Origin: Kiritimatiellota bacterium
Lineage (GTDB): Bacteria; Verrucomicrobiota; Kiritimatiellia; JAAZAB01
DNA length: 64,000 nucleotides
Direction of reading: 5' to 3'
Assembly (NCBI GenBank): GCA_026398415.1
Contig: JAPLSY010000030.1
Location: forward strand, 21,306-85,305
Numbering within the stretch: position 1 is the stretch's first letter; each line of letters starts with the position of its first letter. The position numbers and the translations under genes are program-made. The notes under the pieces are model-generated. The model ran no database searches. It saw only the letters and a program-made list of their open reading frames with translations, and was not told the origin of the DNA. Below, in pieces: positions 8,577 to 33,050 of the stretch.

Positions 8577-8588
8577 GGCTTAGTACCA

Positions 8589-8623
8589 GTTATTAGTGAT
8601 CAGTGATCAGTAATTAGTGATTT
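8589..8623 (+). repeat. In-phase heptamer array, GTGATCA family (5 units)
   Basis: GTTATTA GTGATCA GTGATCA GTAATTA GTGATTT. Confidence 0.8.
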
Positions 8624-9109
8624 ATCATCATCCACCGTCTGTTGCCCGGCTTCCAATTTCCGGCGTCCGGTTTCTGGTGTCCGTTGCCTGTCGTCCGTCT
8701 TCCGATACGGACTGGGGCCGAGTTGCTCGACTTGATTGATAAAAGCATTAATCACCCGCGCAAACTTTTCGCCTTCCGAGGCTGAGACCCACTCCAGTTT
8801 CAGGCGGCCCTCGTGCAAGCCGAACTGTTTCAGCAGGAGTTTAAGGAGCGCCATGCGCCGGCGGGTGCGGTAATTCCCGCCGATGTAATGGCAATCCCCC
8901 GGATGACAGCCGGCCACCATGACGCCATCCGCGCCCCGGCGAAATGCGCGCAGGATAAATTCGGGGTCAATCCGCGCCGAACACATGCTGCGGATCACAC
9001 GGAATTCCGGCCGGATTTTCATGCGGCTGATACCCGCAAGGTCCGCCCCGGCATAGGAACACCAGTTGCAACAAAACACCAGCACTTTTGGTTTGAATTC
9101 AGCCGCCAT
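8600..9109 (-). CDS. mvhD: Hydrogenase iron-sulfur subunit MvhD
   Basis: FCCNWCSYAGAD, MCSARIDP, GCHPGDCHY; start trimmed to MAAEFKPK; tail encoded by heptamer repeats. Confidence 0.93.
   Translation of the reverse strand: MAAEFKPKVLVFCCNWCSYAGADLAGISRMKIRPEFRVIRSMCSARIDPEFILRAFRRGADGVMVAGCHPGDCHYIGGNYRTRRRMALLKLLLKQFGLHEGRLKLEWVSASEGEKFARVINAFINQVEQLGPSPYRKTDDRQRTPETGRRKLEAGQQTVDDDKSLITDH
8635..8704 (+). repeat. In-phase heptamer array, TCGTCCG family (10 degenerate units)
   Basis: CCGTCTG TTGCCCG GCTTCCA ATTTCCG GCGTCCG GTTTCTG GTGTCCG TTGCCTG TCGTCCG TCTTCCG. Confidence 0.7.
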
Positions 9110-12281: not shown

Positions 12282-12301
12282 AAGAAAATCGTTTTAAGAA
12301 C

Positions 12302-12350
12302 GTTCTTGGTTCTTCGTTTTTCGTTCTTCGTTAATCCGGAACGAAGAATC
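12302..12350 (+). repeat. Heptamer array GTTCTTC family (5 units) with short inverted arm
   Basis: GTTCTTG GTTCTTC GTTTTTC GTTCTTC GTTAATC followed by GAACGAAGAA; fills the hdrC-hdrA gap. Confidence 0.75.
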
Positions 12351-30369: not shown

Positions 30370-30531
30370 AAAGTCTCCTGCTTGTCATCCGGTACTCGTG
30401 CGTGGCATATCCTGGAGAACGGTCGCCAGATTGTGCCGCCCTCCCGGGTTGCACAAAAGCCAACATAATTGAGGGACGGAATTCTTCCCTGGTTCTCTCG
30501 CCTGGGCGAAGCGCTTCGGCGGAGCCTGGTC

Positions 30532-30566
30532 GTTCTTTGTTCTTTGTTCCGCACGCTTCACGTGCT
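30532..30566 (+). repeat. Short heptamer array at thiG 3' end
   Basis: GTTCTTT GTTCTTT GTTCCGC ACGCTTC ACGTGCT. Confidence 0.5.
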
Positions 30567-31343
30567 TCCGGCATTCGAAAGGAACGAGGTCAGCGGACTG
30601 GTGGGGACGGCCTCCTCGCTCTGGGACATGATCCCGGCCAGACGCGCGGAATGACCGGCCTGCACGGCTAAAGCAAAGGCGGCGGCCATAGCCACGGGAT
30701 CGCCGGCGATGGCAATGGCGCTATTGACCAGCACGGCATCGCACCCGATTTCCATGGCCAGGGCGGCATCGGCAGGCGAACGCAATCCCGCATCCACAAT
30801 CACCGGCACGCGACTGTCGCGGATAATGATTTTAAGCAGGTCGGCCGTGGCCAGGCCGTGGCCCGTGCCGATCCCCGACCCCAAGGGCATGACCGACGCA
30901 CAGCCGACATCTTCCAGACGCTTGGCCAGGACCGGATCGGCCGGCATGTAGGGCATGACCACAAAACCTTCCGCCGCCAGGATCCTGGTGGCCTCCAGGG
31001 TTTCAATCGCATCCGGCATCAGGTGATGGGGATTGGGATGGATTTCCACCTTGATAAACTTGCTGCCGCTGAGTTCCCGGGCGATGCGGGCGGCCTTGAC
31101 GGCCTCCTGCGCGTTGCAGGCCCCGGACGTGTTCGGCATGAGCGTCAGGCCCTTGATGGTCAACAACGGGCCCAGCAGATCATCCGAGGGCCGTTCCCGA
31201 TTGAACCGGCGCAAAGCCACGGTCACAAGCTGGGCGCCGGAAGCCTGAATGGCTTTCAGCATGGTTTCGGCATCCGAAAACTTACCCGTCCCCAGGATCA
31301 GGCGCGAGGTGAAGGTGTGTTGGCCTAATGTTAAAGAATCCAT
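30558..31343 (-). CDS. thiG: Thiazole synthase
   Basis: [49 protein letters not shown]. Confidence 0.95.
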
Positions 31344-31353
31344 GGCAAAACCA

Positions 31354-31479
31354 GTGATCAGTGATTAGTAATCAGTTATCAGTTCTTCGTTCTTGGTTCT
31401 TCGTTTTTGGTTCTTCGTTTTTTGTTCTTCGTTTTGCATTCGACGTTAAGCGTTTGACGTTGGGCATTGAGCGTTTGCT
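31354..31479 (+). repeat. Composite array of 18 in-phase heptamers from three motif families
   Basis: 4x GT(G/A/T)AT(C/T)A, 8x GTT(C/T)TT(C/G/T)-like, 6x (G/A)TTnnnC-like, all in one 7-nt register. Confidence 0.85.
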
Positions 31480-31514
31480 TCTTCCCTTTTCAGACTGTCG
31501 TCCGTTGTCTGGCC

Positions 31515-31895
31515 TCACGTCTTCATCAATTTCCGGCGCTGGACGGCAACGATTTCATTGATCCGTTTGGGATTCGGCAAGCCGCGGGCAACCAGTTCAT
31601 AGCCTTCCACACCCGAGGTGGCCATCTTGATATCGCCAATCCGGCACAGCCGCTGGAAAAACGACTGGCTAATTTCAACCGTGTTGATGTCCGTTATCGC
31701 CAGATCTACAACGCGCTTGCTGACGAGCCCGGTTTCCAGAACTACCCGGTCCGGATATACACGCAAAGTCAGACTGGCCTGCTTCCAGAGCGCGATCACC
31801 AGCGGGATCAACAGCCACCCGAACACCAGGTACCCGAAGTAATGCCACCAGGATGGCTCCACTTCCAGCAGGAGGTCTTCCGTATCTTCAAACAC
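31515..31895 (-). CDS. Bacterial PH-domain membrane protein
   Basis: One hydrophobic segment then YPDRVVLETGLVSK...I.TVEISQSFFQRL..IGDI. Confidence 0.75.
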   Translation of the reverse strand: MFEDTEDLLLEVEPSWWHYFGYLVFGWLLIPLVIALWKQASLTLRVYPDRVVLETGLVSKRVVDLAITDINTVEISQSFFQRLCRIGDIKMATSGVEGYELVARGLPNPKRINEIVAVQRRKLMKT

Positions 31896-31985
31896 CTCTT
31901 CATCCTCCGGATCTTATGTCCGCATGGGGCATGGTTCACGGTTCCAAGGTTATCGGATCATATGACAAGGGCGATCTTGACGGAT

Positions 31986-32034
31986 TTGTCCGGCGTCTGT
32001 CGTCTGTCATCCGTCGTCGGGCTTCCGTCCCCCG
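31986..32034 (+). repeat. Heptamer array, TCGTCCG family (7 units) immediately after methyltransferase stop
   Basis: TTGTCCG GCGTCTG TCGTCTG TCATCCG TCGTCGG GCTTCCG TCCCCCG. Confidence 0.7.
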
Positions 32035-32036
32035 CC

Positions 32037-33050
32037 CTACCCAAGCTTGCCTGCGCGATGAGCGGCAATAAAATTCATGCCAAAATCGTCCGTGCCCAGC
32101 AGGAGCGCCTTGGCCAGCTGGAACGGCTCCGCGTTTGCGTCCAGACCCTGAAGGATTTTGGCATTGATCTGGAGCGGGTCCACAATACCGCCATCGCCGC
32201 CGGCTTCCACCGCCAGATAAGCGAAGACCTGGTTGATCAGCTTGCGGGCGGGCATGCCAAAGGACACATTGCTCAAGCCGCCGATAATGTGAACGGCGGG
32301 ACCGTACTTTGCCCGGATCGCTTGCACGGCGGCCAAAAACATCTTGCCGTTGTTCGCTTCCGTGGAAATTGTATAAACAAGCGGGTCCACGTGAATCCAA
32401 TCCATCTGGATGCCCTTGGCCGTCAACTGCGGGATCAGCCGTCCCAAATTATCCAGGCGTTCCTCCGTGTTAGCAGGCAGGCCTTTTTCACCGGCGGCGG
32501 AGGCCACCACGGCCGGTTTATACTCGGCCACCGCGCCCAGGAGCCCGATGCGCTCCAGGGAAATGGAGTTCACCATCGGCCGACCGCGGGCTTTTTCGCA
32601 GGCTTTCAGGCCGGCGCGCATGATATCGCTGTTGGAGGAATCGATGCTGAGCGGCAGGCGGGAGGCGCCCTGGACCAGCGCCGCCGTCCACTGCACAGCC
32701 TTGATCCGTTCCGGCAAATCCATGCTGAATTCATCCACGTTTACATCGAGGAACGAAGCCCCGGCCTTCTCCTGCTTGGCCGCCATGACCCGCAGGTAAT
32801 CGCAACCGGCTTCCTGCGCGGGTCCCTGTCCGTAAAGCCCCTGCCAGATCGCCGCAACGCAGTGCTTGATTTTTCCGTTTTCCCAGTCGGCGCTTTTCAA
32901 TAAAATTTCGGGAATGGGCAATGTTTTCTTCTTGCCGCCATCGTCATAGCGAATGACGCGCGCAGCGGCATCCACCAGGTTGCCATCGCGCTTCAGCACG
33001 CGCGTGCAATGAATGTTCTCACCGATCACAATAAAGGTTTTGATCTGCAT
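32037..33050 (-). CDS. Methyltetrahydrofolate:corrinoid methyltransferase (pterin-binding TIM barrel, AcsE/MT2 type)
   Basis: VIGENIH, LDVN, PLSIDS, MVNSI, VDPLV, GGLSNVSFGMP, IVDP. Confidence 0.88.
   Translation of the reverse strand: MQIKTFIVIGENIHCTRVLKRDGNLVDAAARVIRYDDGGKKKTLPIPEILLKSADWENGKIKHCVAAIWQGLYGQGPAQEAGCDYLRVMAAKQEKAGASFLDVNVDEFSMDLPERIKAVQWTAALVQGASRLPLSIDSSNSDIMRAGLKACEKARGRPMVNSISLERIGLLGAVAEYKPAVVASAAGEKGLPANTEERLDNLGRLIPQLTAKGIQMDWIHVDPLVYTISTEANNGKMFLAAVQAIRAKYGPAVHIIGGLSNVSFGMPARKLINQVFAYLAVEAGGDGGIVDPLQINAKILQGLDANAEPFQLAKALLLGTDDFGMNFIAAHRAGKLG

Follow-up and report, generated by a model that had tools for sequence, protein, structure and literature searches.

Directly upstream of the thiazole synthase gene thiG, the genome of a Kiritimatiellia bacterium carries a tract in which three different 7-nt motifs follow one another without loss of register. 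This raises the question of whether the tract is the product of a dedicated mechanism that keeps a fixed 7-nt register while units or blocks are added or recombined, as proposed in the initial annotation of the window (the whole 64,000-nt stretch of DNA analysed here), or whether it belongs to a more ordinary class of repeats. When positions 31000-31900 of the window were read, the 18 back-to-back heptamers reported from 31354 on the plus strand were recovered letter for letter, 16 of them opening with GT and the remaining two of the 31354-31479 stretch with AT. The sense strand of thiG is the minus strand, where the units read xxxxxAC, so that the leading GT corresponds to a trailing AC. The tract ends 10 nt before the thiG start codon (31343-31341, minus), in agreement with its reported placement directly upstream of this gene, and occupies most of the 171-nt gap between a gene for a bPH_2-domain protein and thiG, both encoded on the minus strand. 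It is composed of three modules (GCYCAAC x6, GAAGAAC x7 and TGATNAC x4), with a GACRGAC block besides at the upstream stop codon. The features used below are the following, read from the sequence unless another source is given in brackets.

31515-31895, minus: upstream gene for a 126-aa bacterial PH-domain protein, whose TGA stop (31517-31515) opens the spacer (ORF list; Pfam bPH_2, E 5.5e-13)

31495-31514, minus: post-stop module A, about three units of GACRGAC type, immediately 3' of the stop

31438-31479, minus: module F, six GCYCAAC-type units with a AAGCAAAC lead-in and a GTCGAAT end, both found again at other loci; block 3 of the initial annotation

31431-31437, minus: GCAAAAC, a transitional unit at the F/C border that is two changes from either family consensus

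31382-31430, minus: module C, seven GAAGAAC-type units arranged as a 14-nt super-repeat (GAAGAAC plus NAAAAAC); block 2 of the initial annotation (TRF, period 14)

31354-31381, minus: module D, four TGATNAC units with TGA/TAA in all three frames; block 1 of the initial annotation

31344-31353, minus: start-proximal spacer TGGTTTTGCC, without a Shine-Dalgarno (SD) motif; TGGTTTC-NCC is kept in relatives (sequence and congener comparison)

30558-31343, minus: thiG, thiazole synthase (Pfam ThiG PF05690, E 8.5e-102; the N-terminus aligns from residue 1 in relatives)

8587-8630, minus: second module D array of the window, ending in ACTGGTACTAAGCC and then ATG (TRF, sequence)

12296-12345, minus: C-family element of the hairpin class, with a short GTTCTTC-type arm, a loop and GAAGAAC x4, located between hdrC and the gene after it (TRF, sequence)

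31988-32029, minus: post-stop module A array after a pterin-binding gene (32037-33050, Pfam) (TRF CGTCTGT, period 7 and 14)

In the sense direction, the spacer thus runs from the stop codon through about three GACRGAC units, 15 nt of other sequence, AGCAAAC plus five GCYCAAC-type units, GCAAAAC, seven GAAGAAC-type units, four TGATNAC units and TGGTTTTGCC to the ATG. By TRF, two stretches have period 7 (31352-31383 and 31382-31433), and 31382-31435 also has a super-period of 14 nt, with 3.9 copies and 95% matches. The matches that had been proposed for block 1 with an array near 8589 and for block 2 with another near 12302 were both correct, being of TGATNAC and GAAGAAC type, respectively; the tract is indeed built of discrete blocks that recur elsewhere in the genome.

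Module D is formed by the units TGATAAC, TGATTAC, TAATCAC and TGATCAC. A unit that contains a stop codon and has a length not divisible by three puts TGA or TAA in all three frames, so this module closes every reading frame just before the thiG ATG. No Rfam family was detected at gathering score anywhere in the window, including the TPP (THI-box) riboswitch expected before thiamine genes, so a riboswitch or other known RNA was rejected. A structured leader RNA was also discarded because the fold of the leader was no better than that of shuffled versions (z -0.66). Neither a sigma-70-like promoter nor an intrinsic terminator was found on the thiG strand of the spacer, and neither GGAG nor AGGA precedes the thiG ATG. 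Arrays of this kind precede genes of all kinds, and thiG itself is a housekeeping gene.

Two other features lie next to these modules. An ORF of 48 codons from GTG, or of 31 from an internal ATG, crosses the GCYCAAC and GAAGAAC blocks (window 31372-31518, minus). Its stop is a TGA of the TGATNAC block, located 28 nt upstream of the thiG ATG, and the ORF may be a uORF or have no meaning. On the other side of thiG, a short sense AAAGAAC x2.6 array was found directly after its stop codon in the convergent spacer (window 30520-30557, minus), followed by a G+C-rich inverted repeat (GGCTCCGCCGAAGCGCTTCGCCCAGGCGAGAG).

The tract has a large number of counterparts and is more than a product of chance. 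The assembly (3.29 Mb, 88 contigs, 56% G+C, a 93%-complete MAG) contains 107 strict period-7 arrays versus at most 29 for each of the other periods from 2 to 15, and a looser scan of the whole genome returned 397 period-7 arrays covering 15.8 kb. About ten unit families (GACRGAC, GCAGAAT, GAAGAAC, TGATCAC, CAGAAAT, GCTCAAC, CATTAAC, GTCAGAA, AGCCTAC and ATCCAAC) make up 726 blocks of at least two units, and at least one block is present in 20% of the co-directional intergenic spacers; many of the matches that appear as genic are ORF ends that extend into arrays. The relatives of its thiG place the genome in an uncultured lineage of Kiritimatiellia (Verrucomicrobiota/PVC) MAGs from groundwater and sediment metagenomes. 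Among kin genomes, which are not independent of one another, the GAATGCA family was present in seven of nine congeneric genomes and in one of 31 more distant relatives, and most genomes of the class have heptamer arrays made from other, lineage-specific units. A 400-kb sample of the sister genome G006 held 105 period-7 arrays versus at most 16 for periods 5, 6, 8 and 9. The tract is, then, an unremarkable member of a family of 7-nt tandem repeats that occupies intergenic spaces throughout the genome. The head-to-tail 7-nt units, the period-7 excess and the mainly intergenic arrays of several families are those of the short tandemly repeated repetitive (STRR) class, and the identity of the tract as a heptamer simple-sequence-repeat module with slippage-type evolution is very highly probable.

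Other sequences were found associated with the arrays. In about 20 confident genes the ORF enters a GACRGAC array and ends at the TGA of a variant unit GNCTGAC (for instance G000 C35:29381-31000 and C51:11111-12355), so the C-termini of these proteins are encoded by repeat units. A G+C-rich imperfect hairpin element of about 30 copies (CCTGCCCRCCG...GCGAAGGYGGGAC) sits inside post-stop GACRGAC arrays throughout the genome, with 29 matches to the expression GCGAAGG[CT]GGG; examples are G000 C16:83437 and C23:76299, and it is also present upstream of thiG at locus L002 (around 2830-2880). A small palindromic repeat, TTTATCCCGCGTTGCGCGGGAC, is inserted in or beside heptamer arrays in three exact copies and eight copies of its core (G000 C23:44404, C23 minus near 161700, and C53:40716). 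A search for shared start-proximal motifs gave only two copies each of GATTTTCTTATG and TGGTTTYNCCATG.

The register was analysed wherever blocks from two families lay on the same strand within 21 nt of each other, writing the unit so that R-A-Y or AC ends it. Labelling at the level of units with one mismatch allowed produced an excess of spurious runs, and only its strict form was used. The offsets modulo 7 of the 42 junctions were distributed as 7, 6, 8, 3, 7, 4 and 7, which is indistinguishable from uniform (chi-square p 0.77), with 7 of the 42 in phase; when at least three units were required on each side, two of nine junctions outside the thiG locus were in phase (p 0.38). It had been stated at the outset that a fixed-register mechanism should be abandoned if block junctions elsewhere were out of phase as often as by chance, and this is essentially what was observed. 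Junctions into TGATNAC blocks were the sole type found in phase (six of seven, with a nominal p of 5e-5 that is indicative only, some of them having been found by eye). GAAGAAC was followed in phase by TGATNAC in the window and at C70:58667, C49:203018 and C51:1808, and GACRGAC by TGATNAC at two of three loci. Other pairs showed recurrent non-zero offsets of their own, such as +4 for GACRGAC followed by CAGAAAT (five of nine). As for the GT/AC anchor shared by the three blocks at thiG, its probability is 1/49 if independent phases are assumed, for a coincidence noticed post hoc among dozens of composite arrays. Register is therefore a property of particular junction sequences and not a general rule.

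A dedicated mechanism adding or recombining units or blocks at a fixed 7-nt register, through templated and polar growth, is thus extremely improbable. The common register of the three blocks at thiG and the in-phase entry into TGATNAC blocks speak for it, and against it stand the uniform offsets at other junctions together with three further results. The reverse transcriptase gene that would accompany a telomerase- or DGR-like addition of templated repeats was not found, as no RVT_1 match was obtained in the 93%-complete genome. Polarised growth had also been suggested, and no sign of it was seen at the start-codon end, where the last 60 nt are collinear with those of congeners, free of indels and diverged at the rate of four-fold degenerate sites. 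Finally, the only visible recent growth is an internal duplication of 14 nt (two units) in the middle block. The idea of cassettes, with a small four-helix-bundle gene between inverted arms, was likewise rejected: genes between distant arms are of all sizes, and arms at most 150 nt apart enclose no gene. It would be a mistake to interpret the tract as a novel system of templated repeats. What holds of the original interpretation is that the blocks are discrete and recur elsewhere and that the three of them share one register at this locus; the general rule, or machine, for addition in steps of 7 nt does not.

To follow the origin of the leader, the thiG loci of congeners were compared. In several of them (loci L002, L003, L005, L008 and L010 compared) thiG comes directly after thiS, and here it is preceded by the bPH-domain gene. 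Upstream of thiG, loci L004, L007 and L008 carry GAAGAAC-type units, three to four TGATNAC-type units and TGGTTTC-NCC-ATG, with about two to four module C-type units at the orthologous place. Ungapped identity over the last 60 nt of the leader was 78, 72 and 63%, respectively, and 77, 76 and 70% at the four-fold degenerate sites of thiG. The leader evolves no slower than these sites, and no constraint was seen at the sequence level. By this comparison, the leader is orthologous at the three loci, with a stable start-proximal end that drifts at an approximately neutral rate. Whole leaders have also been replaced, as the congeners of loci L001, L003 and L006, with a closer thiG (83-88% at four-fold sites), have leaders that are unrelated or of different composition, and the thiS-thiG spacer of L010 is 20 nt long and has no arrays. 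The leader is dispensable, since several of the congeners with a closer thiG have unrelated, array-free leaders.

Slippage in whole units (7 or 14 nt) cannot break the register, which is therefore kept automatically. At the F/C border, GCAAAAC is two changes away from both GCCCAAC and GAAGAAC, and at the C/D border TGATAAC comes nearer to GAAGAAC than any other unit of the TGATNAC block. Whole-unit slippage, intermediate units at the borders and inheritance make a special register mechanism unnecessary. Slippage alone does not account for the return of the same ten or so families and junctions across hundreds of loci. A match to the F-to-C junction was found at C21:155887-155941 (89% over 56 nt), and matches to the C-to-D junction on contigs C49, C51 and C70 (86-93% over 35-49 nt). 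Likewise, AAGCAAAC typically opens GCYCAAC arrays and GTCSAATG closes them, CCGGARAAGA is a frequent end of GACRGAC arrays, and ACTGG is one of TGATNAC arrays. The earlier contention that simple slippage was insufficient was right to the extent that families and junctions recur at unrelated loci beyond what local point mutation gives. Such recurrence means either that joined modules are copied between loci or that the unit repertoire is functionally constrained. In the scheme that we favour, the tract would be one locus of a class of modules shared across the lineage and occupying transcribed spacers in this genus. Arrays would arise and change in length by replication slippage in whole units, and new blocks would come from the amplification of mutated units or from the copying of already joined modules between loci, either of which would explain why particular junctions, such as GAAGAAC to TGATNAC, always look alike.

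Position and strand of the arrays were analysed with respect to 2498 genes (86.5% coverage) predicted with our own codon-usage-based caller, which is crude. Inverted pairs at most 150 nt apart were treated as a hairpin class, and the arms of each family always had the same polarity: GAAGAAC 12/12, GCAGAAT 18/18, GTCAGAA 12/12, CAGAAAT 9/9, CATTAAC 8/8, AGCCTAC 6/6 and GACRGAC 9/9. A universal arm polarity relative to the AC anchor was discarded, as the orientation of five families is opposite to that of three. An inverted pair reads alike on both strands, and the polarity of this class therefore says nothing about transcription. The thiG tract belongs to the unpaired class. Unpaired arrays were found in sense versus antisense orientation in proportions of 87:34 for GACRGAC (p 1.6e-6) and 18:1 for GAAGAAC (p 8e-5), and of 11:4 for TGATCAC; for module D (TGATNAC) blocks the proportion was 12:3. 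In convergent spacers, plus-strand GACRGAC arrays lay by the stop codon of the left gene rather than the right one in a 13:6 proportion, and minus-strand arrays by that of the right gene in a 21:4 proportion (Fisher p 6e-4), showing that the bias follows the gene and not the chromosome strand.

Sense GACRGAC arrays start at a median of 9 nt after the stop codon, which is often the TGA of a variant unit. Sense GAAGAAC, TGATNAC, CAGAAAT and CATTAAC arrays end at a median of 10-21 nt before the start codon, and module D blocks at 10.5 nt, these distances being approximate and partly biased because gene starts were moved past arrays. In composites, all 21 junctions of GACRGAC with the four pre-start families had GACRGAC on the upstream side, GCTCAAC preceded GAAGAAC in three of three, and GAAGAAC preceded TGATCAC or CATTAAC in four of four, with one conflict among the 42 junctions. 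The polar order is therefore stop, GACRGAC, GCYCAAC, GAAGAAC, TGATNAC or CATTAAC, start. In the thiS-thiG spacers of four congeners the sets of modules differ and the order is the same, and paralogous loci on contigs C21 (f-A-F-C) and C53 (A-F-C-G) repeat it. The strand bias was also reproduced in the G006 sample (GACRGAC 13:1; GAAGAAC in sense orientation, at a median of 20 nt from starts). The thiG spacer is a textbook A-F-C-D spacer of this genome.

The role of the pre-start arrays was approached through the signals for translation initiation. SD-like motifs are present upstream of about 35% of the confident genes overall, compared to 11 of the 72 genes with a sense pre-start array within 30 nt (p 3e-4), and thiG has none. 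The region from -50 to +20 folds more weakly behind arrays than in controls (median -7.3 vs. -12.1 kcal/mol); adjustment for G+C left a difference of +1.8 kcal/mol (p 0.005), so the weak folding is in part just low G+C. The genome encodes a six-domain S1 protein. Neither CsrA (PF02599) nor a cold-shock domain (PF00313) was found in the 93%-complete genome, and among nine congeners searched the former was found in none and the latter in one. A bacterium without any cold-shock-domain protein is unusual. CsrA and cold-shock proteins were consequently rejected as binders of the arrays, as neither was found in this genome and both are rare in the genus.

With SD depletion, weak folding, stops in all frames and the likeness to the TAACTGA repeats described below, the likeliest role for the pre-start arrays, tentatively assigned from sequence, is that of an unstructured, A/C-rich, SD-independent leader. 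In the RNA, sense pre-start arrays would serve as a leader rich in A and C, with little structure and no SD motif, on which ribosomes could load by S1-type or standby initiation. Any such function would depend on composition and length and not on the exact sequence, given the near-neutral divergence of the leader and its dispensability in congeners. The closeness of GACRGAC to stop codons does not follow from a role in translation initiation. For the complete reading, that is, a heptamer simple-sequence-repeat module that evolves by slippage and serves as a leader, we estimate a probability of roughly 0.55; the leader function taken by itself is less likely than not.

One competing explanation is that arrays are neutral filler, products of slippage by a polymerase that favours 7-nt steps, tolerated where harmless and without positive function, their strand and position biases reflecting mere tolerance by the mRNA (purine loading and the avoidance of start, stop and SD signals). 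We consider it somewhat unlikely. The drift of the leader at the rate of four-fold sites, its wholesale replacement in close congeners, the 20-nt array-free spacer of L010 and the fact that the strongly sense-biased families are the purine-rich ones all fit it, and the literature, as summarised in PMC4679880 and PMC4692102, ascribes heptamer excess to polymerase slippage. It does not predict the polar order of families (21/21), the conserved lead-in and end sequences of the modules, their tight abutment on stop and start codons or the depletion of SD motifs behind arrays. Defined ends of the modules (AAGCAAAC, GTCGAATG, ACTGG) would fit a dispersed and possibly mobile mosaic element of REP or MITE type, in which pre-joined modules are spread by recombination or a transposase and the register is inherited from a master copy. 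The similarity across junctions to contigs C21, C49, C51 and C70, the family-fixed polarity of the hairpin-class arrays and two genes for Y1 (IS200/RAYT-type) transposases are in its favour. However, the similar stretches are short and themselves low-complexity repeats, neither target-site duplications nor clean filled/empty pairs were found, distant inverted arms enclose no consistent gene, the thiG tract is not palindromic, and the Y1 genes (G000 C70:205151-205420 and C36:178-447) lie at contig ends, not flanked by arrays, so this origin is unlikely. The location of both genes at contig ends suggests a repeated insertion sequence that broke the assembly.

Two further proposals involve the reading of the arrays by some factor. 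An oligomeric nucleic-acid-binding protein could recognise R-A-Y every 7 nt, the families being variants of a single periodic code, much as HutP does with UAG triplets set 7 nt from one another. When all arrays were aligned by EM, they yielded a shared NNNN-R-A-Y register (3.5 bits vs. 2.4 bits in column-permuted controls), matches to RAY-N4 x7 exceed those of the reversed control in many relatives, and the strand-specific bias is also compatible with such a docking platform. The excess of information is small, though, and dominated by the abundant GACRGAC family, several families are without a unique R-A-Y, the out-of-phase junctions are contrary to a continuous periodic binder, and the obvious candidates (CsrA and cold-shock-domain proteins) were not found in the genome, making the proposal quite improbable. 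The ordered, strand-specific modules might alternatively constitute an RNA-level system of operon punctuation, an unlikely reading that is based on their arrangement, in which some factor or the ribosome itself would read the modules, handing ribosomes from gene to gene or setting sites for mRNA processing. It would operate in a lineage without cold-shock-domain and CsrA proteins and with SD motifs in about a third of its genes. Were it true, the TAACTGA and STRR repeats found in other phyla might be understood in the same way. Among these explanations, the slippage-derived leader described above is the one that we prefer.

Observations of heptamer arrays go back 35 years and include cyanobacteria, Xanthomonas, Beggiatoaceae and others. 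A search for literature on heptamer repeats in Kiritimatiellia or Verrucomicrobia found no report. The present genome adds a lineage of the PVC group with about ten families, a clear strand bias and a reproducible 5'-to-3' order between stop and start codons, and it removes for this lineage two published candidate binders, Csp and CsrA. The bias, the order and the missing Csp and CsrA together suggest selection acting on the transcript and not DNA slippage alone. With regard to the register, the value of the analysis is negative, as no sign of a register-keeping mechanism of addition was found. Compared with those parts of the published descriptions that were available, what is new is the host lineage, how many families co-exist, the strand bias that unpaired arrays show relative to genes and the polar order of families.

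Among known systems, the heptamer STRR sequences of cyanobacteria, reportedly described by Mazel et al. in 1990, are close in kind to the arrays analysed here. With these and with the heptanucleotide long simple-sequence repeats of Mrazek et al. (2007), as summarised in PMC4679880, the present genome shares a genome-wide excess of 7-nt tandem repeats, several families per genome, an intergenic bias and a patchy phylogenetic distribution. It differs in the strand-specific placement at stops and starts and in the fixed order of families, features absent from the published STRR descriptions as far as the available portions go. The GGGAATC and GGGGAYT repeats of Xanthomonas and Nostoc (Rehm et al. 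2015, PMC4692102) lie on the coding strand within 50 bp after stop codons, prefer the reverse strand just upstream of ORFs, are rare between divergent genes, also occur as inverted pairs, and vary in length and sequence between close relatives. The GACRGAC family behaves alike, whereas their units are G-tract quadruplex formers that prefer four units and those found here have no G-tracts; the thiG tract, in addition, is a pre-start composite and not a post-stop G4 array. As with REP/BIME sequences and their RAYTs, many arrays of this genome are inverted pairs that would fold into intergenic hairpins, and the Y1 transposase family is present. However, the thiG tract forms no palindrome or significant fold, and the stems found elsewhere in the genome are built of tandem heptamers. 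A link of REP/RAYT type was discarded because no arrays flank the Y1_Tnp genes.

The TAACTGA direct repeats of marine Beggiatoaceae, some Cyanobacteria and Bacteroidetes (MacGregor 2015, PMC4679880) occur in forward orientation a few nucleotides upstream of start codons, over the position of the ribosome-binding site and without an SD, in two to six copies, mixed in some genomes with other heptamers, and Csp and CsrA have been proposed as their binders. Module D is similarly in forward orientation, 10 nt before the thiG ATG and without an SD, and TGATAAC, alone among its units, is an exact rotation of TAACTGA, the family consensus TRATNAC differing at one variable position. In contrast to those repeats, one position of the unit is free here (TCAC, TTAC, TAAC, TGAC), the module is one of about ten families in polar order, its host is a Kiritimatiellia (PVC) bacterium, and the proposed binders were not found in the 93%-complete genome. 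Judged by its sequence, the thiG tract is a member of the heptanucleotide class of long simple-sequence repeats, and its start-proximal block is close to the TAACTGA kind.
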